A DNA stretch of 64,000 bases from a virus. The stretch's first letter is position 1, and each line of letters starts with the position of its first letter. Position numbers and translations under genes: made by a program. The notes beneath the pieces were generated by a model. It did no database searches and had not been told where the DNA came from. It saw only the letters and a program-made list of their open reading frames with translations. The stretch lies in IMG/VR virus record IMGVR_UViG_3300020439_002657, positions 7,573 to 71,572 of that record, one strand, 5' to 3'. Below are positions 45,987 through 64,000 of the stretch, piece after piece.

Positions 45987-46024
45987 CGTTTCCGCTGCGT
46001 GACTTTAGAATTTGGAGGGAGTGT

Positions 46025-47733: not shown

Positions 47734-47774
47734 GCCGCTTTCGGCAATCATCCGTTTGGAGGGAGAACGCAGCA

Positions 47775-48071: not shown

Positions 48072-48072
48072 A

Positions 48073-48234
48073 ATGGAAGCAACGATAAGATCCAGCTTCT
48101 TCGCATCGGATATGCGGTATCTCAGCAGAAGGCGGAGAGCGGACCGACACCGAAACCGTCGGTTCCTGGTCATATCCTATGGAATCAGCATCTTGCTGAT
48201 CTTCTCCGTTTATTACGCAATACATCTCTGGTGA
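48073..48234 (+). CDS. Small membrane protein (53 aa, not in ORF track)
   Basis: MEATIRSS...RRFLVISYGISILLIFSVYYAIHLW; GGAG SD; fills gap. Confidence 0.5.
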   Translation: MEATIRSSFFASDMRYLSRRRRADRHRNRRFLVISYGISILLIFSVYYAIHLW

Positions 48235-48238
48235 GGTA

Positions 48239-49054: not shown

Positions 49055-49058
49055 GTCC

Positions 49059-49271
49059 ATGGACACATCGGCCAGTAACATACTGAACGGCACTGGCAGG
49101 ATCGACCTCGAGGGTCGCCTTGCTCATTGCTACATCCTGGGCTTCGAGTGGGCCATTGTAGTGGGGAAGCAGGTCGAGGCAGCTACGCGACAGCGCCCAG
49201 AGCAAGTTCCTGAAGATGGACAACTGATCCATCTTGCAACCTATCAAGGAGTGCGAAATGAACAGAGATAG
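49059..49271 (+). CDS. Hypothetical protein
   Basis: Operon continuity. Confidence 0.45.
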   Translation: MDTSASNILNGTGRIDLEGRLAHCYILGFEWAIVVGKQVEAATRQRPEQVPEDGQLIHLATYQGVRNEQR

Positions 49272-49755
49272 AATTAGATTCAGAAAGATCAAATACACCG
49301 GGGATCCACTTCGGTTTTCCCTGGTATGGGAGAAATCAAACGGGGATGCCTGGGACGAATACTCCATGAGCAGCCTGGATGAACCACATCCAGATTTTGT
49401 GGAGGCCCTCCAGGGATTGATCCCTTCCGTCATCGAAATCTGCGAGCTGCAACCGGAGGACATGGAAGCGGAGTACTATCGCCACTCCATCCGTGGAGTC
49501 ACCTTCGGCTACGCAGGCGAGGACGAGATCCTGGGAGCCAGCATCACATCGATGCGAGGACTGAACGACTCCAACAGTCCACTGGTCCTGAATACTCCGT
49601 ACCTCCCCGAAGAGGACCTAAACGACATGGATGGTCCGGTTCTCCCCCAGAAGTGCATCCGGGCTCTTGAGGTCCTTATGGATGAAGCAGAGGCCTACCT
49701 GAATCGATCAAAGCGATCACAACCGGAGCTCTTTGCCGTGGAGGCCGCAAAATGA
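49258..49755 (+). CDS. Conserved phage hypothetical protein
   Basis: AAGGAG SD; PHPDF, PLVLNTP, QPELF clamp-binding-like C-terminus. Confidence 0.65.
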   Translation: MNRDRIRFRKIKYTGDPLRFSLVWEKSNGDAWDEYSMSSLDEPHPDFVEALQGLIPSVIEICELQPEDMEAEYYRHSIRGVTFGYAGEDEILGASITSMRGLNDSNSPLVLNTPYLPEEDLNDMDGPVLPQKCIRALEVLMDEAEAYLNRSKRSQPELFAVEAAK

Positions 49756-50480
49756 GCGTCGTAAAGGTCCAGGAAAAGCCAATGATCTTTAGCGGAGACA
49801 TGGTCCGGAGGATTCTGGACGGGTACTACTCGCCCGGCAACGGAAAGACCATTACCCGCCGGATCATCAATCGACTTTCCGGGTGGGGACAAATCAAGAG
49901 CATCCGAGAAAGCGACTTCAAGCACTTTGACTGGCTGATTCAGGATAAACAGGGCCGGTACCACAACCTTACAAACGCGGAGCTATTGGAGCGATGCCCC
50001 TATGGGCAAGTTGGAACGCGCTTGTGGGTTCGTGAGAATTGCCGCGCCAGGGAGTTGGAGTCTGGATTGGACGGTGTCCAATATGAGGCTGATGGTTCCT
50101 TCATCCCTATTGAGAATTCCGAGGAAGCCAGCGAAGCCTGGGGCAGGCTGGCCAGTCACAACGGTGCCATTTTTGGCGGCCAGGTTCCCTCCATTCACAT
50201 GCCGCGATGGGCTTCCAGGATCTTGCTGGAGGTCACAGCCTTAAGAGCCGAACGACTCTGCTCGATTACCGAAGCCGATGCGATTGCCGAAGGCGTTTCC
50301 ACTTGTGGACCGGTTCCCATCACCGGTGAGTACAAGACTTTTTCAGCAGTCGAAAGGTTCCGAATCCTCTGGGATTTTCTTAACAACGGGCGTGGCCCGA
50401 AGGAGCGGCGACGATACGGTTGGGCACAGAATCCTCCGGTATGGGTGCTATCGTTCAAAGTTCTGGAGGTACGAAAATGA
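49752..50480 (+). CDS. ASCH/PUA-like phage protein
   Basis: PMIFSGDMVRRILDG..KTITRR, CPYGQVGTRLWVRE, PSIHMPRWASRILLEV, NPPVWVLSF. Confidence 0.8.
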   Translation: MSVVKVQEKPMIFSGDMVRRILDGYYSPGNGKTITRRIINRLSGWGQIKSIRESDFKHFDWLIQDKQGRYHNLTNAELLERCPYGQVGTRLWVRENCRARELESGLDGVQYEADGSFIPIENSEEASEAWGRLASHNGAIFGGQVPSIHMPRWASRILLEVTALRAERLCSITEADAIAEGVSTCGPVPITGEYKTFSAVERFRILWDFLNNGRGPKERRRYGWAQNPPVWVLSFKVLEVRK

Positions 50481-50788
50481 AGCTCCCCAACAAATCCCAG
50501 TTCCGGAAGGAGCTAAGAAGAATCACCGATGCAATTCGCTTGTCGGCACTATTCAAATTTGTCGATCAGCCACCAGCGATCACGTCAGCAGGCTCCCTTC
50601 ATCTAAAGGGCGACGGTTATACAGTGGTCGACCGCGACTATGTAATCCTTGTGGTAGAAGGAGACCACGTTCTTTCCTTTCGCCGAGATGAACTGGCCCA
50701 GGCGTTGGCCAGGGCGTCGGCCGGCCAGGAAATCGGGCCGCTTTCTATCCATACACAAAAACAGAGAGGCCGGGAGGTGCGCAATTGA
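50477..50788 (+). CDS. Hypothetical protein
   Basis: GGAGG SD, ATGA overlap. Confidence 0.55.
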   Translation: MKLPNKSQFRKELRRITDAIRLSALFKFVDQPPAITSAGSLHLKGDGYTVVDRDYVILVVEGDHVLSFRRDELAQALARASAGQEIGPLSIHTQKQRGREVRN

Positions 50789-51537
50789 AGTGCAATGCGA
50801 GCGAAATCCTCCGGCTCCTCCGCTCCCGCCACAAGGATGATGTCTTTGTCGATGAGGTAAAGACCGGACCCACCGGTAACGGCTTGCTTATCCTGGATGC
50901 TTGGGCCATGAAAAAGTCCCGGAGCAGGCCGAGTACTATCGGCTACGAAATCAAGGTATCCCGCTCTGATTTCACCAGGGACTCAAAGTGGCATGGGTAT
51001 CTGGACTATTGCAATGAATTCTATTTTGTAGCCCCTCCTGGAATCATCCGTCCGGACGAACTGCCTCCGGAAGCCGGGCTGCTTACCGTAGCCAGCACGA
51101 AAACCAAAGTCTTCACGAAAAAGAAGGCGGTCTACCGAAAGGGACCGATCCCGAACAGCCTGTATCGCTATCTCTTGATGTGTCGCTGTGAGATAACCAG
51201 AGACATATCTGGCCGTGACGCACGAAGGGACTACTTCCAGGATCTCAAAGATGGAAAGCGGAGCGACCGAGAACTCGGCCACTTCATCGCCTATAAAACG
51301 GCAGAGAAGATTCTAAACCTTGGAAGAGACAAAGCCCGCCTTGAGCGCCGAAACCAGGAGCTTGAGATGCTCTGGAATCTTCTAAGAGAAGCCGGATTCG
51401 ATCCGGGACAACCAGACCGCATTTATGCGGCCCGGGAATTCATCAAGCTGGCAACCGGCGGCCTGAAGCAGGAGGACATTCAAAAACTGGAGTCCGCCAG
51501 GAAAGCCATAAACGAGGTAATTGTTTCTAAACGCTGA
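50785..51537 (+). CDS. MmcB-like PD-(D/E)XK nuclease
   Basis: LDAWAM...GYEIKVSRSDF..D.KW..YLDYCNEFYFVAP...ELP..AGL. Confidence 0.85.
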   Translation: MKCNASEILRLLRSRHKDDVFVDEVKTGPTGNGLLILDAWAMKKSRSRPSTIGYEIKVSRSDFTRDSKWHGYLDYCNEFYFVAPPGIIRPDELPPEAGLLTVASTKTKVFTKKKAVYRKGPIPNSLYRYLLMCRCEITRDISGRDARRDYFQDLKDGKRSDRELGHFIAYKTAEKILNLGRDKARLERRNQELEMLWNLLREAGFDPGQPDRIYAAREFIKLATGGLKQEDIQKLESARKAINEVIVSKR

Positions 51538-51545
51538 GAGGATCC

Positions 51546-52379
51546 ATGGAAAGACCCGTTCTGAAATACAACGGCTCAAAATGGCTACTAACGGATTGGA
51601 TCCTCGAGCACTTCCCGGCGCACAAGGTGTATGTTGACCTTTTTGGCGGAGGCGGATCCGTGCTGCTGCGAAAGGACCGCGCCCGATTTGAATACTACAA
51701 CGACGTGGACGGAGAGCTCTGCACTTTCTTTCGAGTGCTCCGGGATCGACCCCGGGAGCTGATCCGCTCTATCCGATTCACCGCTTACTCCCGGGACGAA
51801 TTCGAGATAACCCGGACTTCGACGGAATCCGAACTGGAAACAGCCCGTCGATTCTATACCCGCTGCTGGATGAACATGAGCAACAACCGGGCGGGTGGCT
51901 CCTTCCGGTCCTATGGAAATGTCTTCTCCAGCGGTGGTTACCGACCGGCCTCCATGTTTGCAGACCTTCGGCCCTTGTACCGGGCTGCAATGCGATTTCG
52001 GGGAGTTGTAATCGAGAGCAAGGATTATGGCAAGCTCCTCAAGGAGTGTTCCAGCCCCGAGACTCTCTTATTCATCGACCCTCCCTATTTGGGAATCTGC
52101 CGCAAAGCCGGAAGAGCCTACCAGCATGAAATGATGAGCATCTGGGAGCACTTCATTCTATTTCTCAGGCTCCGAAAAAGCCCCTCTATGATCGTCCTCT
52201 GCGGCTATCCATCGAAGCTCTACGAAATCACTTTTGAGCGAGCTGGGTGGAAGCGAGTCGAAAAGCGAACCAGAGACAACAAGCGGAATGAGAGAATCGA
52301 GTGCCTCTGGCTGAACCCGGCCTGCCAGAAGGCCCTCGGCCAGCAGGATCTTTTCCCCGATTTCGTTCACGCGAGATAA
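51546..52379 (+). CDS. DNA adenine methyltransferase (Dam/D12 class)
   Basis: LKYNGSKW, YVDLFGGGGSV, FIDPPY. Confidence 0.95.
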   Translation: MERPVLKYNGSKWLLTDWILEHFPAHKVYVDLFGGGGSVLLRKDRARFEYYNDVDGELCTFFRVLRDRPRELIRSIRFTAYSRDEFEITRTSTESELETARRFYTRCWMNMSNNRAGGSFRSYGNVFSSGGYRPASMFADLRPLYRAAMRFRGVVIESKDYGKLLKECSSPETLLFIDPPYLGICRKAGRAYQHEMMSIWEHFILFLRLRKSPSMIVLCGYPSKLYEITFERAGWKRVEKRTRDNKRNERIECLWLNPACQKALGQQDLFPDFVHAR

Positions 52380-52381
52380 CA

Positions 52382-53209
52382 ATGACGGCATACTACAATG
52401 AAATAGACCCTTTCGCCGCACAATGGCTCCGGAATCTCATAGAGGAAGGACTCATAGCCGATGGCGACGTGGACACCAGGAGCATAGCGGATGTCAGAGC
52501 AGACGACCTTACCGGGTATCGACAGTATCACTTCTTTGCGGGAATCGGAGGCTGGAGCATCGCCCTCCGCCAGGCAGGATGGCCGGATGATCGGCCCGTC
52601 TTTACAGGATCACCACCATGCCAGCCATTCTCTCATGCAGGAAGGCAAGCGGGAATCAGAGACGAAAGACACCTTGCCCCGGAATGGATCCGTTTGGTCA
52701 GAGCCCTCCGGCCTTCTGTCATCTTTGGTGAACAGGTTGCCGCTGCAGTCGACCGGGACTCCTGGCTCGATGATCTACTCGATGCACTGGAAGACGAAGG
52801 TTACTCCACGGGGGCGGAAGTACTACCAGCTTGTAGCGTCGGCGCACCGCACATCCGACAGCGACTCTGGTTCGTTGGGTGGCTGGGGAACACCGGCAGC
52901 ACGGGACTGGAAAGACTCCCCGGGGCAGAGCATTGCCGGAGTCAACCCGGACGGATCCCCCCGAGTCCGCCTCGACCAGCTCCCACGACAGGCTGCGATA
53001 GCGGGTCTGGCCCCTGGGACGGATTTGACCGCATCCCCTTCCCCATTGGTAGGCCGAGGCCAATACAATCCGGGCTTAGCCCGATGGCTCATGGGATACC
53101 CGCAAGAATGGGACGATTGCGCGCCTACGGGAATGCGATAGTCCCTCCCCTCGCTGCCGAAGTAATCAAGACTCTAATGGAGCGCATGGAGGTGCCGGTA
53201 TGCTCCTGA
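52382..53209 (+). CDS. DNA cytosine-C5 methyltransferase, large subunit (lacks motif IX; motif I permuted)
   Basis: [49 protein letters not shown]. Confidence 0.9.
52491..53141 (+). CDS. C5-MTase small subunit in alternative frame (TRD + motif IX)
   Basis: Nested +1 ORF with [11 protein letters not shown] and [16 protein letters not shown]. Confidence 0.7.
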
Positions 53210-53568
53210 CGCACTCCCAGCGCCTTGCCGAGATTTACCCGGACTTCCCGGAGTTCGCAAAGCTCTCCGTGAAGATCGAATGGGCCATGCGGAAACGAAA
53301 GAAGATGAACGGGGGCCGCTGCAGGAAGACCGGAGGGAAGCCCTGTGATTCAGCACATCTACTGCCCCGGAGATTTCCGCATCGGGACTACTGCGCCTAC
53401 GATCCCGAATGGATAACAACGCTCCACCGGTTCTGGCACTCATGGCCAGGAAACCCGCAATGTTATGATAAGCAGATTACGGTTCGAGATAAGTGGCTCT
53501 GGCTTCTCGATCATGGCCTCGATAGAGAGGCGGCCATGCTGGAGCCTTTAGTAATGAAAGGATGGTGA
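53200..53568 (+). CDS. Hypothetical protein, possibly NinG/HNH-like
   Basis: GRCRKTG..CDSAHLLPR...TLHRFWH; GGAGG SD. Confidence 0.55.
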   Translation: MLLTHSQRLAEIYPDFPEFAKLSVKIEWAMRKRKKMNGGRCRKTGGKPCDSAHLLPRRFPHRDYCAYDPEWITTLHRFWHSWPGNPQCYDKQITVRDKWLWLLDHGLDREAAMLEPLVMKGW

Positions 53569-53574
53569 AAAGAA

Positions 53575-53877
53575 ATGAATGAAGAAACGTTAAGTGTAAC
53601 GGATTGGAGAAGAGACCTTTCAAGGATCGTCAGTGAAATGCTCGATGCGCCTTCGCCGGAAGGAATCTACCCGACGACGGAGTGCCTGGATAGGCTGGAA
53701 CAGCAGATAGCCAAAGCGGTCATTTACGGAGTTGGCTGGGGTCACGCGGATGCCTGCGCGGACATAGACAACAAGCGCGATCCCCGGGCGAAAGACCTGG
53801 GCGATATGTTGCGCCGGGCAAAGGTAGACCTCGGACTCTCACCCAGGGAAGACGCGGAGGCAGTCAATGCCAGTTGA
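53575..53877 (+). CDS. Hypothetical protein
   Basis: Operon continuity. Confidence 0.6.
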   Translation: MNEETLSVTDWRRDLSRIVSEMLDAPSPEGIYPTTECLDRLEQQIAKAVIYGVGWGHADACADIDNKRDPRAKDLGDMLRRAKVDLGLSPREDAEAVNAS

Positions 53878-54256
53878 CCAGCTCTTGTTCGCCCTCGGCT
53901 TACTATCCGCATCTGCGCTCTATACCATTGCAGCCTTGTCCGGGAGGGTCCTTCGGTGGAGACAAGAACGACAACGTCTCAATGGTTACGCCAGGCTATA
54001 TGGGGTCCCTCCTTATTTTCCGGAAGAGAACACCGGCATAAGAAAGCGGATCCTGGATGCGGGCAAAGCAGTGATGAATAAAGCATTTAAGTGGGTTCGA
54101 TTATACCTGGGTATCGCCCGAGTTCCCGAGATTTGCGAAGCGTCAACCGGCAAGAGAGACTTCCATGATTACTCGGTCCATAAAGGTGGCACCGGATGGC
54201 CTGCGCACTTCTATACCTACCGGTGCTGGAACTGCGGCAAGGAATTTGAGATTTAG
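53867..54256 (+). CDS. Hypothetical protein (N-terminal TM, C-terminal CxxC)
   Basis: GGAGG SD; YRCWNCGKEF. Confidence 0.55.
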   Translation: MPVDQLLFALGLLSASALYTIAALSGRVLRWRQERQRLNGYARLYGVPPYFPEENTGIRKRILDAGKAVMNKAFKWVRLYLGIARVPEICEASTGKRDFHDYSVHKGGTGWPAHFYTYRCWNCGKEFEI

Positions 54257-54272
54257 GAAGGAGTGAAGAACA

Positions 54273-55205
54273 TTGCCAGTCGAGACATTGCCCGATAAAC
54301 GAAAAAATCAGAAGAATACCGGGTATGGGAGGCAGAACACATTGAAGAGCCACCATACCGAGAAGGTCGTGGATCTGGATATCGCCGATCTCAAAGAGCA
54401 TCCAGACAATTACATATTCAAGGCCAGTTCACAATTCATCAAGAACCTGGCCGCTTCCATTGCCCGGGATGGCCTGGAAGAGCCGATTCTCGTAAACCGT
54501 GAAGGATATATTATCTCCGGACACAAACGGGTCAAGGCCTGCAAACTTCTCGGGTGGACCGCGATCCCGGGAAAGATCCGAGACATCCCGCTGAAAGGCA
54601 GCATAGGAAAACTCATTCGATCCAATACCGGTCGGCAGTCGGTTACTCGCAGGATCCGCAACCGCATCTATGAGAGAATCGCGCCGGAGTTCTGGGACCT
54701 GGAGGCCCGAATAACCCGAAAGAGAGTGAGAGAGATTGCACCGGAAATCGGGATCTCCGAGAACACCGTCCTCAAGGATCTATCTTACATCCGTGGCGAA
54801 ACGAGCGAAAAGGTCACGCAGGAAATGGTCGCCCAGGAATGGCGCTCAAAATACCGCAAGGCAAAGGTGAACCTGATCGACGCCGGAGACGGACTCTACA
54901 TCTGCCAGGTATCCCTGCACAGCCAGCAGATCAATTCCGGTCCGGATAAGATGCAGGCAGTCCTCTCTGACAGCTTAAAGAAAGCGCGCTCACGGTACTG
55001 GGAGCGGGACTCACGTTACAGCGCAACCGGCCTGGAGATCCGAACCATCCGCAAGCAGCTCGGGCTTACCCAGTCCGGTCTTGCCCACGCTCTCGGGATC
55101 TCGCAATCCTACCTGGCGGAGGTGGAAGCCGGAATGTATGAAGCTGCGAACTCAATTCTACAACAGGTTCAGGATTACCGCGAAGAAGTCCGGGAATTAC
55201 GATAA
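54273..55205 (+). CDS. ParB/Srx N-terminal domain + XRE HTH protein
   Basis: LKEHPDN, SIARDGLEEPILV, IISGHKRVKA; C-terminal IRKQLGLTQSGLAHALGISQSYLAEVEAG. Confidence 0.85.
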   Translation: MPVETLPDKRKNQKNTGYGRQNTLKSHHTEKVVDLDIADLKEHPDNYIFKASSQFIKNLAASIARDGLEEPILVNREGYIISGHKRVKACKLLGWTAIPGKIRDIPLKGSIGKLIRSNTGRQSVTRRIRNRIYERIAPEFWDLEARITRKRVREIAPEIGISENTVLKDLSYIRGETSEKVTQEMVAQEWRSKYRKAKVNLIDAGDGLYICQVSLHSQQINSGPDKMQAVLSDSLKKARSRYWERDSRYSATGLEIRTIRKQLGLTQSGLAHALGISQSYLAEVEAGMYEAANSILQQVQDYREEVRELR

Positions 55206-55229
55206 CGCAACGCAGGGAGGATACTTGAA

Positions 55230-55337
55230 ATGATCTGGGAGACAATAGCATACGCGGCCCTGGGAGGGGCCATTGGCGGCGGCATAACGACTCTGGTAAT
55301 TATTGGCATTCGCTGCATTCTGGAAGGATGGGAATGA
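55230..55337 (+). CDS. Tiny TM peptide (35 aa, not in ORF track)
   Basis: GGAGG SD; MIWETIAYAALGGAIGGGITTLVIIGIRCILEGWE. Confidence 0.45.
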   Translation: MIWETIAYAALGGAIGGGITTLVIIGIRCILEGWE

Positions 55338-55576
55338 TGGGTAGCGATGGATATCAACCAAAAGGCTCAGGGAACATGTCAAACCCACCACAAGGAGGCA
55401 GTGGCATGCCTGCCAAGGAGCCTTCTCTGATAGGCAATTATTGTCCACGATGCGGGAAAATGCCGGAGGAAGATGAACGCCCCGACCTTCCCGGTAGCCT
55501 AAAGCAGGGAAAACGCATCGCCCAGCTTGAGAATTTACTCATTGCACATGACATTCCCATTCCGGAGGAACCGTAG
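55328..55576 (+). CDS. Hypothetical protein
   Basis: Operon continuity; YCPRCGK. Confidence 0.5.
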   Translation: MGMMGSDGYQPKGSGNMSNPPQGGSGMPAKEPSLIGNYCPRCGKMPEEDERPDLPGSLKQGKRIAQLENLLIAHDIPIPEEP

Positions 55577-55999
55577 ATGGCCGCGACAATAGATCTGGCT
55601 TTGACAGAAGCAGGCTTTGACCCGGAGCTTCAGCCGAGAGAATCGGAACGATTTCTCATCAAGTCAGTTCCTCGGAACGGCACGCCTTTTATTGTAGAGT
55701 CTGTCATTGGAGGAGAAGAGCTGAATTCCGGAAAGTCTCAAACCTCGTTTAACGTGGCCCGGTTTAATCGTAAAGAGAGTCGCATTGAGAAATTATCGGG
55801 GGACTTCATTTTCGGCCTGCCAGTTGGGTGGTATAAGATTCACGGCTTTATTCCAGGAAATCCCGGCCCATTGGAAACACTGTACGCCCAGCGGTACCCG
55901 GCAGAGCCAACGAGAGATGAGCTGGAGGATTGGGCGACTTCTGCCGCCATCTATATCGAATATCTTGAGCGGAGATGTGAAGCTCTGGAGGCTCGCTGA
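55577..55999 (+). CDS. Hypothetical protein
   Basis: GGAGG SD, abuts previous stop. Confidence 0.6.
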   Translation: MAATIDLALTEAGFDPELQPRESERFLIKSVPRNGTPFIVESVIGGEELNSGKSQTSFNVARFNRKESRIEKLSGDFIFGLPVGWYKIHGFIPGNPGPLETLYAQRYPAEPTRDELEDWATSAAIYIEYLERRCEALEAR

Positions 56000-56371
56000 A
56001 TGGCGAAGCGGAAACGCATATCACTGGACCTTCCCTACCCGCCCACGGTCAATACCTACTGGAGAAAATACCGTGGGAAAATGGTCCTCTCTGCAAGGGG
56101 CCGGAGCTATAAAGAAGCGGTCCGGTATTCCGTCTTATCCAAGACCAGGGGCCACGTCTTCAAGGATCCAGATCCTCTGAGGGTCATTGCCATTCTGTTC
56201 CCACCGGACCGGCGCAAGAGAGACATAGACAATTCCCTGAAGGCGCTACTGGACGCCCTGGGGAATGATGTTCTCTACTCGGATGACTCTCAGATTTCCG
56301 AACTTCATCTTTACCGAGGAAATGCACGCCCACAGAATGGTTGCGTTTCCGTTACAATCGAGCGACTCTGA
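56000..56371 (+). CDS. rusA: RusA-family Holliday junction resolvase
   Basis: LPYPPTVNTYWR, PPDRRKRDIDN.LKALLDAL, DDSQI. Confidence 0.95.
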   Translation: MAKRKRISLDLPYPPTVNTYWRKYRGKMVLSARGRSYKEAVRYSVLSKTRGHVFKDPDPLRVIAILFPPDRRKRDIDNSLKALLDALGNDVLYSDDSQISELHLYRGNARPQNGCVSVTIERL

Positions 56372-56413
56372 CAGTTCATTCCAGGGGACACCTGTTAGGG
56401 GGACGAAAAATCC

Positions 56414-57547
56414 ATGGGAAAAAAAATCACCTATCTTCTGGGCGCCGGTGCCAGCGCGGGGGCCGTGCCAACGGTGAATGGGCTAGCACAATTCTTGAGG
56501 CACCTCGCAGCTCCGAAGGACGCTCCCAGATCCTACTTAGCCAAATACAGTGAAGTTGAAGATGGGCGCGAAGCTCATGGAGAGTTTCCGGCAATCAGGC
56601 AGTTGATCGAAAAATCAGCCTCACGAGACACATTGGAGCAAGTCAGCCAGAAACTTCTACGAGACATTGAGGAGACTGCGCGCCTTTCTATCGAATTTGG
56701 GACCCCGGATACCTATGCAAAATACCTGAGTCTCAGAGGGTTGGAAGCCCCTCTGGTTGATCTAAGTGGAACGCTGGATTTCGCCCTCAGCCTTGCCCAA
56801 GCACATAACCGAGTTGATCTGAGATACTACCAATGGATTTCAGCACTTGCTACCAGAGACTCCAGGACCGGCAAGGTATGGTTCCCTCAGGAAGTCAAGA
56901 TTCTCTCCTGGAATTATGATATTCAACTTGAGATGGCGATTGGCGAGATCCTCGGGCCCGCCGCCGGAAAGAGCCTTTTCTGCTCTCAGGCGGGCATTCC
57001 AAACCCGATCCCACCGGGACCCGGGATTCCTGATTTTCCCGTTTATCATAAGATCAACGGCTCTTCGGGGCACTTACTCTCGCTGCAGCGAGAACCAGCA
57101 GCCTTTCAAATAATATCTGAAGGGGGAGGTCATGTTGATGCGGTTTCAAATCTGATGGAAAGCCTCTTGGCCAACGGGAGATCAGGACAATCGAGAATCC
57201 GTTTCGCATGGAGTCGCCCAGAGGCTCTCGACCTGCAACGATTTGGCGACACCGAGATTCTTGTTGTAATAGGATACTCCTTCCCCTCCTTCAACCGGCA
57301 AATCGATGGAGAAATTCTTACCTCAATGCAAGAACTGGAAAGGGTAGTAATTCAAGATCTCACTCCAGGGCCGAAGGCCTCGATCGTAAGAGAATTGCTG
57401 AGAAACACGCATCCTGACCAAGCAAGAGACATTGCAGTTCAAACGGAACTGGCCAAAGATAGTCCGTTCTTTATCCCGAGCGAACTTTTCGTCCAACCAA
57501 AGGCAAGCCGCACTCACCAAGAAGATCAGGCTCGCTCCCCTCAGTAG
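56414..57547 (+). CDS. SIR2-like domain protein (candidate defence moron)
   Basis: YLLGAGAS, ILSWNYD, HKINGS, LVVIGYSF..FNR.ID. Confidence 0.8.
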   Translation: MGKKITYLLGAGASAGAVPTVNGLAQFLRHLAAPKDAPRSYLAKYSEVEDGREAHGEFPAIRQLIEKSASRDTLEQVSQKLLRDIEETARLSIEFGTPDTYAKYLSLRGLEAPLVDLSGTLDFALSLAQAHNRVDLRYYQWISALATRDSRTGKVWFPQEVKILSWNYDIQLEMAIGEILGPAAGKSLFCSQAGIPNPIPPGPGIPDFPVYHKINGSSGHLLSLQREPAAFQIISEGGGHVDAVSNLMESLLANGRSGQSRIRFAWSRPEALDLQRFGDTEILVVIGYSFPSFNRQIDGEILTSMQELERVVIQDLTPGPKASIVRELLRNTHPDQARDIAVQTELAKDSPFFIPSELFVQPKASRTHQEDQARSPQ

Positions 57548-57596
57548 AAGAGGTAGGCTGCTATCCCTGCCAGGATTGCTTCTCTCTGGTTCCTCA

Positions 57597-57636
57597 CTGT
57601 CCGATAACCGGGATTTGGATAATCCTTGCAGTAGTC
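57597..57636 (+). promoter_or_regulatory. Putative phage late promoter (terminase)
   Basis: CTGTCC gataaccgggatttgga TAATCC; 34 nt to ATG (atypical spacing). Confidence 0.5.
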
Positions 57637-58233
57637 ATGGCCAAGAGAACGGAAGAGAAGTCTGTACGGAATCAGATTAACAGGGACCGCAAGAGTGCCC
57701 CAAATGCCCCACCGGATGCCTCGTCGGCAAAGGAAAGAAAGGGAGCTAAGACAGCCGCCAAGAGTGCAACAAGCAAGCCAAAGCGGGCAACCAAGAAAGA
57801 GCAGAAAACGGCGAAGAAAGCCGAGCCTTTTAGCTTTCCCGGACTAAAGGAAACGGAAGCCAAAGCAGCGGAGCTCGTTGCCTCTGGGATCAATTTCAAG
57901 AAGATCGCCAAGTCCCTGCAGATAGACAGGAAGACCCTCTACCGCTGGAGGAAGAAAACCGCTTTCATCGAAGCTGTGAAGTTCCTTCTGGATGAAGAGG
58001 ATGGGGACCTCCTCGCCGAGGCGAGGATCACTGCACGGATGGCCAGGGCCGCACTCCGGAAATCCTTTGAACGACAGAGCCCCCAGGATAATGCCATTGC
58101 CCTCCGCTACCTGGAGCGCACCGGCCTGCTCTACGTGACGGACGAACAGGCGGACAGAGAAAAAGCCATCCAGGAGGCCGCTGGAATCATGGCCAACATC
58201 CTATCCAAGCATGGCATCGAATCAGTCAATTAG
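57637..58233 (+). CDS. Terminase small subunit
   Basis: AAELVASG....IAKSLQIDRKTLYRWRK HTH; overlaps TerL start. Confidence 0.75.
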   Translation: MAKRTEEKSVRNQINRDRKSAPNAPPDASSAKERKGAKTAAKSATSKPKRATKKEQKTAKKAEPFSFPGLKETEAKAAELVASGINFKKIAKSLQIDRKTLYRWRKKTAFIEAVKFLLDEEDGDLLAEARITARMARAALRKSFERQSPQDNAIALRYLERTGLLYVTDEQADREKAIQEAAGIMANILSKHGIESVN

Positions 58234-59917
58234 ACAGAGGATCCTCTCAGAGCTGGGATCTTCCGGGCTGAATCGCTTCCCCCCGCAGGTTCTGGAGTTG
58301 GCATTCCGGAGAGTGGAACAGGAATATGCGGGACAGGTCGCCGAATCGGCGAACAGGGAGAAATCCCTATGCAGGCGCCGGGCCACGGGAAAGCGGGGGC
58401 AGTTTCACTTCTTTCTCCGCCATTACTTCGGGCACTACTTTGGAAGCCCGTTCGGCCCCCAGCAGAAAGCGTTGATCGAAGACATCCAGGCACTACGGGG
58501 CCGACAACGGGATCCGGTGAAGATGACCCGAGCCCTCTCCCGTGGTTTTGGGAAATCGACGGTTCTGACTCTGTGCGGCACCCTCTGGCTCATTCTCACG
58601 CGGACCTGGAATTTCCCCATCATAATCTCCAGCAGCCTCGAATCTGCAAAAGGATTCCTGCAGGCGATCATCGACGAATGCGAGGACAATGCGGTGCTCC
58701 TAGAGCATTACCCGGAGCTGCGACCGAAGAAGGACCAGAAGGGACAGACCGTTTCCTGGAAGGACGGGGACATCGTATTCCAGGGCGGAGCCCGGATCCT
58801 GGCGAAGGGATTCCTGAACAGTATCCGTGGTAAACGGCGCAAAGAGTCCAGGCCGGATGCATTGCTTATCGATGATCCGGATGAAGAGAAGGACGTGGCC
58901 AGCGAATCGACCATGGTCCGCAAGATGCGGTGGCTGGACCGCGCGGCCCTGCGCCTGGGTGGAGCCTGGGGCCTGGATGTGATCGTGGCTTACACCACCA
59001 TCGCCCCGAATTGCGTCGGTGAGCAGATATTCACGGATAACCAGAAGTACGGGCATTGGGACCGGAAGAAGCTCAAGGCCATCGAGGTGGACGAAGACGG
59101 AAACGAATTCTCTACCTGGCCGCAAACCTGGCCATTGAAGGCACTCCAGGAGGAACGGGCGCAGGATCCGATCGGATTTGCCCAGGAACGGCAGAACGAA
59201 CCACTGGCAGAAGTCGACCAGCGATTCAAAGGGCTAATCCAGAGGTACCGCTTTCCACCTGCCCCGAGCTGGACCGACTGGACGCTTGCGCTGGCCGTGG
59301 ACCTTTCTCTCGGCAAATCCGAGAAATCAGACTACAGCGCCATCATAGGCGTGGGTCTCGGTCCGGATGGGAAGTTTTACGAGGTCTACTCAGACATCCA
59401 GAGGCGGCGACCGGATGCCATTGAACGGGATCTAATGCTGGCACTCCAGACGCTTCCCTGGAATATCTGCGGCATCGAAAGCAACGCCAACCAGGAATAC
59501 TTCCTCCTGAACTTCCGGCGATTGGTATCTGAGTTCAATAAGACCAGTGCCAACAAGATCACTATTCCGATTGTGGAGCTGTCCAACACCTCCGACAAGG
59601 AAGCCAGGATCATGGGCGCACTGCAGCCGTTGGTAGCCTCCGGCCTTCTATTGCTTCGGGATGACTCCGAGATGCTCTTTCAGCAGCTAAACGAATTCCC
59701 CTACCGACACAAGGACGGGCCGGATGCCCTGGAGATGGGAGTCCGGCTCATTCGGGAGATGCCGGGAATCCGCGCATCAAAGCCCAAAGAGCAGCCTAAC
59801 CAGAACACCGCAAGGCAGGTGCAAGAAAGACGAAAGAACACCATTCAGAGCAGGCAGTATGATAGCCTGTTGCGAAAGCTGGGCTACGATGGGCCGAATG
59901 ATCCCAGAATCCGATAG
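58211..59917 (+). CDS. Terminase large subunit
   Basis: SRGFGKST Walker A, IRG..RPDALLIDDP Walker B, FAQERQNEP, AVDLS.GKSEKSDYSA, HKDGPDALE. Confidence 0.95.
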   Translation: MASNQSIRQRILSELGSSGLNRFPPQVLELAFRRVEQEYAGQVAESANREKSLCRRRATGKRGQFHFFLRHYFGHYFGSPFGPQQKALIEDIQALRGRQRDPVKMTRALSRGFGKSTVLTLCGTLWLILTRTWNFPIIISSSLESAKGFLQAIIDECEDNAVLLEHYPELRPKKDQKGQTVSWKDGDIVFQGGARILAKGFLNSIRGKRRKESRPDALLIDDPDEEKDVASESTMVRKMRWLDRAALRLGGAWGLDVIVAYTTIAPNCVGEQIFTDNQKYGHWDRKKLKAIEVDEDGNEFSTWPQTWPLKALQEERAQDPIGFAQERQNEPLAEVDQRFKGLIQRYRFPPAPSWTDWTLALAVDLSLGKSEKSDYSAIIGVGLGPDGKFYEVYSDIQRRRPDAIERDLMLALQTLPWNICGIESNANQEYFLLNFRRLVSEFNKTSANKITIPIVELSNTSDKEARIMGALQPLVASGLLLLRDDSEMLFQQLNEFPYRHKDGPDALEMGVRLIREMPGIRASKPKEQPNQNTARQVQERRKNTIQSRQYDSLLRKLGYDGPNDPRIR

Positions 59918-59984
59918 AGATTCCTGATTCAGCATCAGCGGCCTCAACTACCGGTGTGCCATCCGCATGGGCCTTCGACAAAAG

Positions 59985-60551
59985 CTAGAAAGCACCGTCC
60001 AGCTCTTCCTTGCTTTCTGCCTCCACTCTCTTCTGTTTCTCAATATACCCGGCCGGTGGCTCCGGGTTGTTCTCCTTCATTCTAAGCTGGATAATGGCTT
60101 CCTCATTACTGGCTTTGCATGGATACATCTCAATCGAATACCGCCCCTGATCAGGTTTCCATCGACAAGTACTCCCTGGCCCAGGATCACCATACTTCGC
60201 CTTCAGCTTCTTTGCTAATGCTGCAGGGGGACCCTTCCATTGGAAACGGATCTCTCGAACAGTACCCCATTTGGTAAAGTAAACATGAGGCCCGGTACCG
60301 GAGCTGTAGGTCCAATTCTCTGCTTCATCAAAAAAGATCCCAAGGTGACTGGTTAGGTTTTCTCGGCGAGTATCGTTCAATTCAGAGAAGGACTCTGGCC
60401 AATGGCCCACCATGCCAGGGTATTTGGAGCTGAGACGACTCATCAGTTCATCATAAGATATTCCGATTTCGAATTCAAAGAAGCGAGGAGCTTCTGCCTG
60501 GATCGGAACAGAAAGAAATACTGCCAAATAAATAGGAAGGAAAGCTCGCAT
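59985..60551 (-). CDS. Exported hypothetical protein, moron-like
   Basis: Start MRAFLPIYLAVFLSVPIQA (signal peptide); TTGACA-18-CAGAAT 5 nt before ATG. Confidence 0.7.
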   Translation of the reverse strand: MRAFLPIYLAVFLSVPIQAEAPRFFEFEIGISYDELMSRLSSKYPGMVGHWPESFSELNDTRRENLTSHLGIFFDEAENWTYSSGTGPHVYFTKWGTVREIRFQWKGPPAALAKKLKAKYGDPGPGSTCRWKPDQGRYSIEMYPCKASNEEAIIQLRMKENNPEPPAGYIEKQKRVEAESKEELDGAF

Positions 60552-60761
60552 CAGTAATTCTGAAGGGCAACAGGAAGCGTTGTCAACCGGTTCCTCCGGA
60601 GACCCCTGCCCATCAAAGAGAAAACTCCACAAGGGCCAGGAGAAGCGGTATCCAGGGGCAGAGGCTAACAATGGACCAAATGACCGGAGGCAGCCGAAAC
60701 AAATAAACCGTTGCAATAGAAGGTATCATCGATATCCAAGTGGGAAAGGGAGGGTTTAGTA

Positions 60762-60917
60762 ATGCCAAAAAAGGCCGCCAAAAGAACCACGAAGAAGAAA
60801 GTCGCAGCAAAGAAAAAGACCTCAAAAAAATCAGCCAAAAAGAAGACCAGTAAGAAGAAAGCCACCAAGAAAAGAAGTGACCGCCCTCGATTTGGCGGCG
60901 GTGCAAAGAAGCGTTGA
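60762..60917 (+). CDS. Lys-rich histone-H1-like peptide (51 aa, not in ORF track)
   Basis: MPKKAAKRTTKKKVAAKKKTSKKSAKKKTSKKKATKKRSDRPRFGGGAKKR; GGGAGG SD; TTGA overlap with next gene. Confidence 0.7.
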   Translation: MPKKAAKRTTKKKVAAKKKTSKKSAKKKTSKKKATKKRSDRPRFGGGAKKR

Positions 60918-61381
60918 AGAAAGGTAACTGGGAAGAAGCGAAGAGGTGGAGTGACGAAGCAGTCAAGACCGCCCATGAGAACTACGCTTTCTATACGGGA
61001 AAGGCCAGTGGACTAGTGAGGCAATTAGCGCTGGGAGGAATTGCTGTGGTCTGGCTTTTCTCACTTGAGCCATCGAGCGAGGGGACCAATTACAAGCTTC
61101 CTTCCAGTCTTGCATGGCCCCTGTATTTGATGGTCTTATCCTTGGCAGCCGACTTTTTGCACTACATGATATCCGCTGGCATCTGGGGCTGGCGAAGTCT
61201 CCATGGGGTGGCGAACTTCAGAAAGTTGATATTCTGGCATTACCGCCAGACCCCAGAGGGCAGAAATCGCCGGGACTTCTGGGTGGAGTTTCCCTCTCAT
61301 TTTCTTTTCTGGCTTAAATCTGCTTTCGTACTCATAGGCTACATTTGGCTCTTGATTGCAATGCCTATCCAGTTCGCATAG
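60914..61381 (+). CDS. Three-TM membrane protein
   Basis: YTGKASGLVRQLALGGIAVVWLF...LSLAADFLHY...LFWLK. Confidence 0.7.
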   Translation: MKKGNWEEAKRWSDEAVKTAHENYAFYTGKASGLVRQLALGGIAVVWLFSLEPSSEGTNYKLPSSLAWPLYLMVLSLAADFLHYMISAGIWGWRSLHGVANFRKLIFWHYRQTPEGRNRRDFWVEFPSHFLFWLKSAFVLIGYIWLLIAMPIQFA

Positions 61382-61386
61382 ATGAG

Positions 61387-61421
61387 CTGCCCGATAAAGC
61401 GAAACTCTGTATGCTCCGGCC
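61387..61421 (+). promoter_or_regulatory. Putative phage late promoter
   Basis: CTGCCC gataaagcgaaactctg TATGCT ccggcc ATG. Confidence 0.75.
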
Positions 61422-61733
61422 ATGGAAAACAAAACACAAGCCGAAGACATTCAGCAATCGGAGCCAGGGAATCCGGAACTCCCTGCTGAGGATACCGAAC
61501 AGGAAACCGAAAGCACTGAAGGAGTGCCGCCGGATCCAGAGCCCGAGCCTGAGAAGGAATCCGAGCAAGCGGCCAGCTATGCGAGCGTCCTGGCAGACCA
61601 CATTTCCAGCCTGGACGATTTCATTCAGCAGCGGCTCTGGAGTAAGATCCAGTCCTATGCCACCCAGAAATTGCCGCCCGCCACGGCATTGAATCTGGCT
61701 GTGAGAGCAATCGAGGCCGAACTGCGCAACTGA
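61422..61733 (+). CDS. Acidic hypothetical protein
   Basis: 103 aa after late promoter. Confidence 0.65.
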   Translation: MENKTQAEDIQQSEPGNPELPAEDTEQETESTEGVPPDPEPEPEKESEQAASYASVLADHISSLDDFIQQRLWSKIQSYATQKLPPATALNLAVRAIEAELRN

Positions 61734-61737
61734 GGCG

Positions 61738-62619
61738 TTGGCAGAGAAGCGCGAACAGTTCGAGGGTCCGTTCCTGCCTTTCAGGTTTCTCCGGGAATGG
61801 CAATACGCCTGGCTGGAGTACTACGCCTGGATGCAGGCGACCCTTGTGGGCGGGACCGTATCACGGATACAGATCAACAAATCCATGCTCGGCGATGTCT
61901 GGAAGCGGGCCAACGGCTTCCTGGGGCGCCTCATGGAGCGGAATCCATTCCCTGCCCCATCGATCCAGGTTGGCACAGAGCTGGATGAAGACTCCCTCAA
62001 TGAATACGAATCGGAGGCCTTCGACTGGCTCCGGGTGAACTACAACGAAGTATACCGGGGCGAGAACTACAAGGGCACCGTGCTCGGAATGATCGCCCAG
62101 CACTTCCAGCGCAAGGGATTCGACCTGAACCGACTGAAGGAACTGAGCCTCCAGGATCTGGACTCGGAGATGCAATCCGAAGGATACGAAGGTCTGGGGA
62201 ACCTGGACGACTTCCTGGAAAAGACCGGCGTCCGGAAATCCTCAATCTACGCATCCATCTTCAATGAGTCCGAAGGAGCCCGCTGGCTTGCCATCTACGA
62301 CGAAAACGGCCAGAGGGCAGGCCGCAGCTACGAGGTTACCAGGGACATGGTGCGCGACATCGTGCAGATGGCCATAGACAATGATCTGTCCCTGGATGAG
62401 ATCCGTCAGGAACTGATCTACGCCAGCACAGAAGCACAGTCCGGACGGTATATCAATCCTGACGGATCCATCGATGAGAAGGGATTCCAGGAGCTCATGC
62501 TGAAGCACTTGAACCGTGACATGGTCCGCGTTGCTGTTACCGAGGCGGCAATATCATTCAACAACGGCCTACTACTGCAGCAAGTCCATGAGGGCGGGAA
62601 GTATGTTAGATTCACGTGA
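61738..62619 (+). CDS. MuF/SPP1 gp7-like minor head protein, N-terminal part
   Basis: LNRDMVRVAVTEAAISFNNGLL...KYVRF matches the MuF 'R.ARTE...N.G' region, then stops before the Cys motifs. Confidence 0.7.
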   Translation: MAEKREQFEGPFLPFRFLREWQYAWLEYYAWMQATLVGGTVSRIQINKSMLGDVWKRANGFLGRLMERNPFPAPSIQVGTELDEDSLNEYESEAFDWLRVNYNEVYRGENYKGTVLGMIAQHFQRKGFDLNRLKELSLQDLDSEMQSEGYEGLGNLDDFLEKTGVRKSSIYASIFNESEGARWLAIYDENGQRAGRSYEVTRDMVRDIVQMAIDNDLSLDEIRQELIYASTEAQSGRYINPDGSIDEKGFQELMLKHLNRDMVRVAVTEAAISFNNGLLLQQVHEGGKYVRFT

Positions 62620-64000
62620 ATCGACAGCCGCAAATCCGGGAGTATCGCGGGTTATCTTTGATATCACCAAGTCCGAAGAAAGCGGACCCGGATCGCGGGG
62701 CGGAATTGTGGTCGGTTACTGGCCGTCGGGAAAACCGAAGTACCTTTCGGAGCTCAAAGAGTACAACCCCGAATCAGGCGAAATCCAAACCTCAACTGTG
62801 AATATCCCGAAGAACAAAGAACAAAGGCGAGAATTTGCAAAGAGGCAAATGCAGTCTCTTGTCGGCCTTTCAGTACCAAACATCAGCCTCGGCAGGGATG
62901 TTGTCTTTACCCGGTCGAAAGGCAAGAAGGGAGTATCCGGAATCCGAACCTCCCAGGACATCGCTGTCATCCCATTACTTGGCGCCCTGGTGCATACGGC
63001 CAGACTCGTTGGCTCAGAACCAGACAGCAAAGACCGTCGCCAGATTCTCGCCGTCCATAAACTTGCAAGCCCTGTCACGATCGATGGAGAAGAATGGGAG
63101 ACTGTTTTTACAATCAAGGATACGCTGGAAGGCAAAGAGAAGGTCCTGTACTATTATACGCACCAGGTTGGGAAACAGGATAGGCCCGGACTACAGCCCA
63201 GCGAGAAGGGACCGCCCCCTACCATACATCACTCTGGGAGTCCGGGCAAATCCAATTTGGGCGGACAGGGAGAGGATAACTCTGTTCCAACGAAGCGTCA
63301 ACAGAAATCATCACTACCCCGAGTGATCTATGAAGCCAGTCCAGCGTCAGTAGAAAAGGATAAGCCTGGTTCAGAGAGCGCGGATCTACCACCGACCCCC
63401 GGCACTATCCATCGCAATTCCCCAGGCCCCCATTTGGTCGGTATCGAAAATAATACGGCAGGATTCAGGGAAAGCAAACAGAAAACCTCTCTGCCCTACC
63501 AGATCCAGAAAGCAGGCCTCGTTCCAAAGATGTGCGAGTATTGCCGAGAGTGGGAAGCCTCCCAGCCGATCCTGCGGGTCTTTGCCAGCTACGCGGAGTT
63601 TGCACGGTCGGAATTCTACGCTGGCGGCGACCTGATGCAGAATGACCCATACGCAGAGTATGCGGTCTGGCCGGGCAAGACGAACGCCAACCGGCACTAT
63701 TCAGATTGGTGGATCTGCACGCCGGTCCACCCGAACTGCAATCACAGCTACCAATCCTGGGAGCCTCCGGATGAAGACGATTACGACTTCAGCGAGCACT
63801 TTGCGGACCTGGACAGGCGCATGGCCGAACGCCAGCAGAAGGCCGAAGAAGAATACTACGGGAAATCTCGGATCGCTCCTATGGAGGTGCGCGGTGTCTG
63901 GCATGAGCGGACCTGCGCTTGCGAGGATCCGGCCCATGATGACCGAGGATCCTGGGTGCGGGAGTATATTGCCCGAAGATTTCCGGTCGTTGTAGGGTAA
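62603..64000 (+). CDS. LPD3/BECR-like nuclease domain + MuF C-terminal Cys domain
   Basis: LVGLSVPNISLGRDVVFT...VIPLLGALV..A.LVGSEPD.K.R...VHKLASPVTIDGEEWETVFTIK...YYY (LPD3-like); later MCEYC...PVHPNCNH (MuF). Start at ATG 62603 or 62588 uncertain. Confidence 0.7.
   Translation: MLDSRESTAANPGVSRVIFDITKSEESGPGSRGGIVVGYWPSGKPKYLSELKEYNPESGEIQTSTVNIPKNKEQRREFAKRQMQSLVGLSVPNISLGRDVVFTRSKGKKGVSGIRTSQDIAVIPLLGALVHTARLVGSEPDSKDRRQILAVHKLASPVTIDGEEWETVFTIKDTLEGKEKVLYYYTHQVGKQDRPGLQPSEKGPPPTIHHSGSPGKSNLGGQGEDNSVPTKRQQKSSLPRVIYEASPASVEKDKPGSESADLPPTPGTIHRNSPGPHLVGIENNTAGFRESKQKTSLPYQIQKAGLVPKMCEYCREWEASQPILRVFASYAEFARSEFYAGGDLMQNDPYAEYAVWPGKTNANRHYSDWWICTPVHPNCNHSYQSWEPPDEDDYDFSEHFADLDRRMAERQQKAEEEYYGKSRIAPMEVRGVWHERTCACEDPAHDDRGSWVREYIARRFPVVVG
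63172..63266 (-). ncRNA. Candidate antisense small RNA copy 1 (ends approximate)
   Basis: Minus-strand TTGACG(63301-63296)-17-TATCCT(63278-63273); stem GCCCGGACT/AGTCCGGGC spanning 63184-63247; CCGCCC/GGGCGG pairing; pyrimidine-rich tail. Confidence 0.55.
63352..63443 (-). ncRNA. Candidate antisense small RNA copy 2 (ends approximate)
   Basis: Minus-strand TTGCTT(63477-63472)-16-TATTAT(63455-63450); stem GCCTGG/CCAGGC spanning 63364-63427; ACCGACC/GGTCGGT pairing; U-rich tail. Confidence 0.5.

Follow-up and report, generated by a model that had tools for sequence, protein, structure and literature searches.

Tandem linker repeats in a modular LPD3 protein gene of a spirochaete provirus, and the base-pairing capacity of their DNA

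The virus record IMGVR_UViG_3300020439_002657 is a provirus sequence of 71,572 bases, rated 51% complete, whose final 64 kb (64,000 nucleotides, positions 7,573 to 71,572) is the stretch analyzed here and is referred to as the window. The window ends in the gene of a 465-residue modular protein, in which an LPD3 domain is followed by ~120 residues without family assignment and then by a C-terminal Cys/His domain. The DNA between the two domains (63170-63529) is coding sequence, consisting of two tandem linker repeats of ~60 amino acids, U1 and U2, that join the LPD3 cassette to the C-terminal domain. That this same linker DNA is selected for base pairing is well supported, most clearly for a ~76-nt hairpin in U1, and also for two short helices found in U1 and U2. 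The best single reading of these sequence data, which we put forward tentatively, is that the linker DNA encodes a cis-antisense RNA.

A first-pass annotation, made from the letters of the window, had taken U1 and U2 for two tandem, pseudoknot-capable antisense RNAs behind a nuclease-like domain, and had proposed an RNA-antitoxin system related to type III loci. Its motifs all occur at the coordinates it gave (outer stems, leader/core pairs and 64-nt spans), and the outer stem and leader/core helix of each unit do cross each other, which is the topology of a pseudoknot. The compensatory changes it described in both helices extend to sequences that it did not include (L001, L008 and L030). The interpretation built on these motifs has changed considerably, as set out below.

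Conservation of base pairing in the linker repeats

U1 and U2 resemble each other chiefly as peptides: their 60-residue translations align in BLASTP (E 1e-5, 19/56 identical), whereas only 91 of 189 aligned DNA columns agree. The ~180-bp duplication reported earlier is real in this sense; Tandem Repeats Finder, applied to 62800-63800, missed it and returned only a 7-nt repeat of 2.4 copies. The outer stem of U1 pairs GCCCGG (63184-89) with CCGGGC (63242-47) across a span of 64 nt, and the other helix arms are listed in Table 1. In translation, the outer arms encode K/R/E-P-G and S-P-G, and the core and leader arms P-P-x and L-x-G.

Linker DNA was available in four distinct variants: that of the window (shared with L002 and L005), that of L001 (shared with L003, L004, L006 and L007), that of L008, and that of an orphan copy, L030. 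The comparative support described below is computational and derives from these four variants, which represent one narrow clade of marine spirochaete proviruses.

Retention of the U1 hairpin is the strongest result of the analysis. Across the C-terminal domain and the neighboring genes, window and L001 are ~95% identical; this drops to 56% in U1 and 43% in the LPD3 part. Their U1 copies, at ~56-63% identity, fold into the same hairpin, in which a GGAU/AUCC base is followed by a GC-rich stem of 9 bp (63184-92 with 63239-47) and by inner stems. On the minus strand the consensus fold has an energy of -33.4, compared with -15.7 ± 3.0 in shuffles (z -5.85), and on the plus strand -23.8, compared with -9.5 ± 2.9 (z -4.86); on neither strand did any of 500 shuffles reach the observed value. 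Changes on both sides that kept the pair were found in 7 of the 25 predicted pairs on the minus strand, a count reached by 1 of 500 shuffles, and in 4 of 24 pairs on the plus strand, a count reached by 50 of 500. Some of these double changes alter amino acids on both sides; one such change, at the stem base, turns U-A into A-U.

The hairpin is also exceptional within the alignment of window and L001. When folding was slid along this alignment, 15 segments had an identity of 0.63 or less; the one containing U1 scored -23.0 on the plus strand and -33.4 on the minus strand, compared with -0.2 to -5.8 and 0 to -13.4, respectively, for the other 14. Conserved 6-bp helices that include a compensated pair number one on the minus strand and none on the plus strand in the LPD3 part (406 aligned nt), compared with two distinct ones, in six registers, in U1 (124 nt).

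For the two short helices, six units were aligned on the minus strand (window U1, window U2, L001 U1, L001 U2, L008 U2 and L030 U2); run X17 record 5, of the P0004 type and with 58 differences, stands outside this set. The helices are paired in 76 of the 78 cells, pairing falls to 24-54% when the partners are slid by 1-3 columns, and three of the 13 pairs have changed on both sides. One pair of the outer stem is U-A in four units and C-G in window U1 and L030 U2, two units of separate repeat lineages. The L030 U2 stem (GCCCGG/CCGGGC) is itself a both-side change, and the double change from CCT/CCA to CCC/CCG has arisen twice, in these two units. Avoidance of a restriction site was considered as the cause of this double change (CCWGG to CCSGG) and rejected, since both forms coexist in one gene.

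The crossing helix is kept at 6 or 7 of 7 pairs in each unit on the minus strand, with one pair taking the states A-U, G.U, C-G and G-C, and another C-G and U-A. In L001 U1 its arms, TCGACC/GGCCGA, form 6/6 pairs on the minus and 5/6 on the plus strand. Among the U2 units the minus-strand helix has U-A in the window and L008, U.G in L001, and C-G together with a U.G in L030; this series, from U-A through U.G to C-G, is the stepwise path usual for RNA helices, and the minus strand alone has a wobble pair as its intermediate. When 6-bp helices were scanned exhaustively for pairing in every one of the six units, two emerged on the minus strand, exactly those of the first-pass annotation, and one on the plus strand, compared with a mean of 0.003 in column shuffles. 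The six-unit consensus fold has a z of -3.46 on the minus strand vs. -2.41 on the plus strand. A further, non-identical linker type (type A, at the N-terminus of L001 and in the middle of L008) possesses a 7-bp hairpin of its own, GAAUCAG/CUGAUUC in one and GAGUCAG/CUGACUC in the other, the difference being a compensatory pair of synonymous changes.

Holding the amino acids fixed and resampling synonymous codons according to their usage in five neighboring genes, ~10 of the 13 pairs form from the peptide alone, compared with 12-13 observed (P 0.078 and 0.055 for the U1 units, 0.007-0.010 for the U2 units). The six-unit total of 76 was reached in 0 of 20,000 draws, a figure to which related, and hence not independent, units contribute. 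The peptide accounts for most of the complementarity, not all of it. Because relatives keep both the helices and the U1 hairpin, because codon choice exceeds what the peptide needs, and because promoter-like sites recur at the linkers (see below), we consider it likely that the linker DNA is under selection for base pairing.

Folding of single sequences is less informative: the window by itself does not rise above chance, and the comparative data do. Relative to shuffles, U1 has a z of -1.66 on the minus and -2.75 on the plus strand (-1.80 and -2.47 in L001), U2 folds no better than its shuffles (+0.22 minus, +1.12 plus), and the whole 306 nt analyzed as minus strand have a z of 0.03. The pseudoknot stands insofar as the crossing helix is conserved, but sits awkwardly with the complete nested hairpin. 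In the nested consensus fold, the apical loop contains the 3' arm of the crossing helix, whose 5' arm is 4-5 nt from the hairpin base, so that on steric grounds one molecule could hardly hold both the helix and all ~25 pairs of the hairpin without a sharp bend in the stem. Helix and hairpin may represent alternative states; another possibility is that just the two helices of the first-pass annotation form.

Rfam gave no match to either strand of 61000-64000 at E values up to 1. A covariance model of our own (R1), run against the window and 16 loci (123,491 bases), matched only its six training units. A single terminator-like site was detected, at 63200-63181 of the minus strand.

Strand, promoter-like sites and competing explanations

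If the linker DNA encodes a cis-antisense RNA, the paired molecule would be a transcript of the minus strand, initiated at promoters that lie within the linker. Each such RNA would consist of a structured 5' end followed by sequence antisense to the upstream cassette, and would pair with the overlapping effector mRNA and silence the cassette, for example in a lysogen; it would not be expected to bind protein. In keeping with this proposal, promoter-like sites recur in register with the repeats. Of the sigma70-like promoters previously assigned to each unit, that of U1 was called by the scan and that of U2 falls below the tool's threshold (Table 1); the local scan found 2 sites, compared with 1.0 ± 0.9 in shuffles. 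Sites in the same register include TTGACT-17-GATCAT in L001 U1, TTGATT-16-TATTAT in L001 U2 and TTGACT-17-CATACT in the type-A linker of L008, each scoring 9/12, and the in-register scores of the six units are 9, 9, 8, 9, 6 and 8 of 12. The recurrent -35 hexamer is the reverse complement of S/R-Q-Q codons, and the -10 hexamers vary in sequence. The L001 gene as a whole has 3 minus-strand promoter-like sites, compared with 0.9 ± 1.0 expected.

Base pairing, too, mildly favors the minus strand as the paired molecule: the six units include three G.U cells on the minus strand vs. one on the plus strand, and the ninth pair of the L001 U1 stem is a G.U that forms on the minus strand only. In an RNA-seq library (run X19), a 200-nt contig matches the end of the LPD3 part and the beginning of U1 (Table 1). 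Its upper end coincides with the RNA start predicted in the first-pass annotation, 7 nt past the -10 hexamer, with the reservation that contigs do not show ends; little weight is placed on this match. No other part of the gene has X19 coverage, an absence to which the rule of the tool gives no evidential value. As a separate observation, a third antisense promoter-like site in L001 (2831-2858, minus strand; TTGACG-16-TAGAAT, 10/12) is located in the N-terminal leader and points towards the ribosome-binding site and start codon of the gene.

Several results weigh against a cis-antisense RNA. Over 44001-64000, promoter-like sites occur at chance density (10, compared with 10.3 ± 3.1 expected), so that any single site is at chance level; L008 U2 has no usable promoter (6/12), and L030 reaches only 8/12. 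Discrimination between the strands is weak, since the plus strand pairs in 74 of the 78 cells; the minus-strand structure claimed earlier is only mildly favored. The single-sequence stability of U1 is higher on the plus strand in both window and L001, and all four U2 variants lack fold stability on both strands (z -0.70 to +1.15). Of the two covariation measures that the tool rates as robust, neither the three both-side-changed pairs (reached by 21 of 500 shuffles) nor the six further pair types (171 of 500) are significant; there are only four DNA variants, two of the six units are those on which the helices were first defined, and ~10 of 13 pairs already follow from the Pro/Gly-rich peptide. 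Finally, the plus-strand fold of 63070-63290 (z -3.07) is closed by a 7-bp helix, 63070-76 with 63264-70, and both ends of the X19 contig lie in the arms of this helix; a trimmed fragment of sense mRNA would explain the contig equally well.

These points lead to the most serious competitor, a possible if on balance doubtful one, in which the conserved hairpins act in the sense mRNA, protecting segments from decay, marking processing sites or slowing ribosomes at domain borders. It requires no new transcript, as the late-operon transcript is known, and all strong helices pair on the plus strand as well. There the U1 consensus exceeds every shuffle (z -4.86), U1 copies are most stable singly (-2.75 and -2.47), and the closing helix of the 63070-63290 fold brackets the X19 contig. 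However, three of the six units have plus-strand A.C mismatches in the leader/core helix at positions where the minus strand has G.U, just one of the two helices is fully paired in all six, both consensus z values are weaker (-2.41 vs. -3.46, and -4.86 vs. -5.85), and the closing helix is not traceable in L001. Programmed frameshifting, one conceivable role of a structured mRNA, was rejected for want of an in-frame slippery heptamer: GGGAAAC at 63170-76 is read GGG AAA C, out of frame, and is absent from L001 and U2. It is rather unlikely, in our view, that the DNA encodes a plain protein linker, whose Pro-Gly, Pro-Pro and Gly-Gly codons (CCN, GGN) yield inverted repeats and whose compensatory changes are small-sample chance. 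The repeat is readily detected as peptide and poorly as DNA, the helix arms coincide with the codons of K/R/E-P-G, S-P-G, P-P-x and L-x-G, and the peptide alone supplies most pairs; U2 is not thermodynamically unusual on either strand, Rfam has no match, and the robust covariation measures, from four variants, are not significant. Against such a linker speaks above all the U1 hairpin, kept at ~56-63% identity with z near -5 to -6 and without parallel in any other diverged segment of this gene pair. In addition, third codon positions within helices are kept or covary, the CCT/CCA to CCC/CCG change arose twice, some compensating substitutions change the encoded residues on both sides (T/V, T/A, A/A, P/G), and the type-A linker has a compensated hairpin of its own.

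Two further explanations turn on the cassettes that the linkers border. A DNA-level element, in which hairpin-capable inverted repeats at cassette borders promote or result from cassette-swapping recombination, for instance by template switching, would suit the exchange of cassettes among scaffolds that are otherwise nearly identical (LPD3 in the window and L001; PBECR1 in L008, P0005 and P0006), mosaic breakpoints at the linker with homology resuming at 63297, recurrence of the U2 core (63362-63443) between unrelated flanks, and the almost strand-symmetric pairing. We nonetheless judge it very unlikely, since homologous recombination at a 46-nt identical block explains the swaps without a hairpin, arms of 6-9 bp set 40-58 nt apart should be poor substrates for templated correction, and the U-A to U.G to C-G path of U2 is typical of RNA helices rather than of templated copying. 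Least probable of all is the arrangement proposed at the outset, in which antisense pseudoknot RNAs bind and inhibit a neighboring nuclease domain in the manner of a type III antitoxin. It can point to two tandem structured units, to a crossing helix conserved on the minus strand, and to relatives with a predicted RNase, PBECR1, in the same slot. The domain in the window, however, is LPD3, which is not a known nuclease, and Pfam and PADLOC detect no protein resembling ToxN, AbiQ, CptN or TenpN. The units number two, of ~180 nt, with about half their bases identical, antisense and inside a gene, there is no terminator between repeats and toxin, and the crossing helix and the complete hairpin would clash sterically. 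Since LPD3 and PBECR1 are followed by the same linker, the linker is not matched to one toxin, and an orphan copy lies among housekeeping genes with no toxin nearby. As LPD3 has no known nuclease activity, and neither a ToxN-like toxin nor a short same-strand tandem array is present, the type III interpretation is unsupported. A bolder extension of the cis-antisense proposal would have each cassette travel with a linker-embedded antisense RNA gene (a promoter in S-Q-Q codons plus a conserved 5' fold) that neutralizes it in the producing or lysogenic cell, by mRNA pairing or by protein binding, as an RNA immunity module for the injected effectors, shuffled along with the cassettes; this we regard as improbable.

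Domain make-up, relatives and genomic setting

The gene of the modular protein begins with ATG at 62603, preceded by GAGGG, and its product is identical to the database protein P0002. The earlier designation of its first domain as LPD3/BECR-like and nuclease-like holds for LPD3, which has a clear Pfam match (Table 1), and not for BECR: PF18809 (PBECR, a BECR-fold RNase) is found by Pfam in the relatives P0005 and P0006, not in the window protein. The paper that introduced this domain describes LPD1-40 as having functions that ‘remain elusive’, and does not place LPD3 among the seven LPDs regarded as possibly enzymatic (PMC5512222); the label ‘nuclease’ is therefore unsupported for the domain in the window. 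The C-terminal Cys/His domain has no match in Pfam, PDB or NCBIfam; in other genomes of the same order it is also encoded on its own, by open frames of 171-199 aa. An AlphaFold2 model of the whole 465-aa protein was unusable (mean pLDDT 31.6). A protein gene antisense to the LPD3 part was rejected as a candidate, since the 139-aa minus-strand ORF at 62716-63135 is not open in L001, where its largest pieces are 75, 58 and 45 aa.

Table 1. Features of the modular-protein gene and its linker repeats in the window.
Feature	Position	Strand	Basis and remarks
Modular-protein gene, 465 aa	62603..64000	+	Open reading frame and translation; stop is the last codon of the record
LPD3 domain (PF18798)	62813..63136	+	Pfam E 2e-13, 51 bits vs. 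cutoff 27; aa 71-178
Contig of 200 nt, RNA-seq library (run X19)	63070..63266		No differing letters; contigs show neither strand, ends nor level; origin from DNA possible
Linker repeat U1, coding, ends in QQKSSLPRVIYEA	63170..63349	+	BLASTP against U2; conserved in P0003, P0004 and P0005
U1 hairpin, ~76 nt	63178..63253		Kept in window and L001; minus strand mildly favored
U1 core arm CCGCCC, crossing helix	63212..63217		Pairs with 63259-64
U1 leader arm GGGCGG (plus-strand letters)	63259..63264		Pairs with 63212-17
Promoter-like site TTGACG-17-TATCCT	63273..63301	-	Scan 9/12; -35 is the reverse complement of R-Q-Q codons
46-nt block, codons for QQKSSLPRVIYEAS	63297..63342	+	Identical in window, L001 and L008 (three-way alignment)
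Linker repeat U2, coding, ends in KQKTSLPYQIQKA	63350..63529	+	BLASTP against U1; alignment of relatives
U2 outer stem GCCTGG 63364-69/CCAGGC 63422-27	63364..63427		Encloses 52 nt, span 64 nt; paired in 4/4 U2 variants
U2 core arm ACCGACC, crossing helix	63391..63397		Pairs with 63436-42
U2 leader arm GGTCGGT	63436..63442		Pairs with 63391-97
Weaker promoter-like site TTGCTT-16-TATTAT	63450..63477	-	8/12 in the window, below tool threshold
C-terminal domain, CxxC...HPNC...CAC motifs	63521..63982	+	phrog_4610, PHROG E 8.9e-25; aa 307-460

The gene is located among packaging and head genes. Upstream are those of the small terminase (TerS, 57637-58233) and the large terminase (TerL, 58211-59917); the gene immediately upstream (61738-62619), which overlaps it by 17 nt, matches phrog_3759 and, weakly, a head-morphogenesis family. 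In the relative L006, which retains more downstream DNA, the next gene encodes an SLT transglycosylase of the internal-virion-protein kind. The 465-aa protein is a member of a family of provirus proteins that are virion-associated and probably injected. Between TerL and the phrog_3759 gene, in the slot expected for a portal gene (59918-61737), there are short ORFs only, one of 243 aa on the minus strand and others of 155, 115 and 103 aa on the plus strand; those of 243, 155 and 115 aa have no match in Pfam, PHROG or NCBIfam.

Relatives of the protein are few. A word search found six related proteins, a linker-only query recovered the same five, and HMMER, run against 1.84 billion representatives, returned a single cluster, in which 19 member proteins, when checked, contained no further linker variant. 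Among viral contigs only that of L001 was recovered, and a search of 156 genomes of the same order added only an orphan copy in genome G040. The proteins found differ mainly in their cassettes: the window, L001, P0003 and P0004 have LPD3, and L008, P0005 (E 4.4e-11) and P0006 (E 1.1e-11) have PBECR1. Near-identical scaffolds carry these different cassettes (window 62603-63165 vs. L008 2155-3777, P0005 and P0006), and the same linkers are found after either. Window, L001 and L008 are identical over the 46-nt block within U1 (Table 1), which is flanked by sequence of 41-56% identity in L001 and diverged sequence in L008, and is a likely recombination joint for cassette swapping. The block also contains the -35-like hexamer. 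L001-type proteins have ~86 additional N-terminal residues compared with the window protein. Another linker peptide, ALKSRIGILQ(S/G)YP, recurs among P0003, P0004, P0006, P0007 and L030; some of these have it close to the N-terminus, and in P0007 it stands directly before the C-terminal domain.

Two sequences depart from the usual arrangement of the linker. The orphan of G040 (L048 = G040:C36, 3713-4060, minus strand) is a 115-aa open frame composed solely of leader and linker motifs and contains a U2-like unit with 13/13 pairs formed and two double changes relative to the window. It is set among housekeeping genes on a 9.8-kb contig without a phage gene, and its ‘antisense’ direction is that of both neighboring genes; this arrangement is as compatible with an RNA gene as with a small protein. 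Its neighborhood includes genes for an AAA ATPase, DUF4416, a bifunctional nuclease, DUF1801, cobalamin adenosyltransferase, thymidylate kinase and MgsA. The other sequence, a 17,393-nt contig (run X17 record 6), matches only the U2 core at 63362-63443, starting 2 nt ahead of the outer stem and ending 1 nt beyond the leader arm. Because both of its flanks are unrelated, the U2 core behaves as a separate module. A further contig of the same run (record 5) covers 62651-64000 of the window, with 7 bases missing at 62810 and an extra C behind 63214, which shifts the reading frame of its LPD3 part from the one point to the other. A broken gene, an assembly error or another cause could account for this.

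Comparison with known systems and implications

The resemblance to type III systems (ToxIN, CptIN, TenpIN) lies in repeated, pseudoknot-capable RNA units beside a phage-related gene, some relatives of which have an RNase domain. Type III loci consist of a ToxN-like toxin preceded by a terminator and a tandem array, and ToxI comprises 36-nt repeats arrayed upstream on the same strand, with that terminator behind them (PMC3401426). The units in the window, in contrast, are on the opposite strand, inside coding sequence and each with a promoter-like site of its own, and there is no ToxN-fold toxin, near-identical short array or terminator between array and toxin; the repeats lie downstream of the LPD3 domain in one ORF, whereas the type III terminator precedes the toxin gene (PMC3401426). 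PADLOC assigned no defense family to the window protein, to P0005 or to the product of the upstream gene.

Cis-antisense RNAs of phages and type I toxin-antitoxin loci, such as those of hok/sok and P22 sar/ant, are short RNAs with a structured 5' part that start from an opposite-strand promoter within or beside the target gene and are perfectly complementary to their target mRNA. Like them, the linker element would have a promoter on the opposite strand inside its candidate target gene, and a structured 5' part. It differs from both in that promoter and fold are contained in repeated, translated linker codons, with one unit per linker; its candidate target, moreover, is a large modular effector rather than the small membrane peptide of hok/sok-type loci, and its transcription and effect are predicted only. 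On this comparison the linker element is closest to a cis-antisense regulator, with a selected mRNA structure as the other candidate.

In-frame, hairpin-capable DNA that is translated within a host protein is known from the Rickettsia palindromic elements. The linker, unlike these, has one locus per genome. A dispersed palindromic mobile element was considered and rejected: with one match in the record of the window and one place each in G001, G004 and G040, the linker is not a dispersed mobile repeat. G002 has the main place and a second match of 43 nt, and G003 has none.

The control of polyvalent and MuF-type phage effectors is generally attributed to protein immunity or to timing. The proteins described here share with polyvalent and MuF-linked effectors (PMC5512222, PMC5576092) the LPD3 or PBECR1 cassettes in a head-module gene, the SLT gene downstream and the mosaicism of cassettes. 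They differ in being small two-cassette proteins without a peptidase domain, and no protein immunity gene is seen in the 3 kb downstream. The word ‘linker’ is absent from the main text of the polyvalent-protein paper (PMC5512222), and a full-text search for antisense RNA together with prophages, MuF and polymorphic toxins, judged by titles and abstracts, turned up no paper on such an element.

If an RNA fold and a promoter do lie within translated linker codons, the linker would be a compact case of dual coding. Should the cis-antisense proposal hold, it would suggest how toxic cassettes come to be freely swappable, because each border would carry its own silencer; should the paired molecule instead be the sense mRNA, the domain borders of a mosaic gene would be marked by selected mRNA structure.

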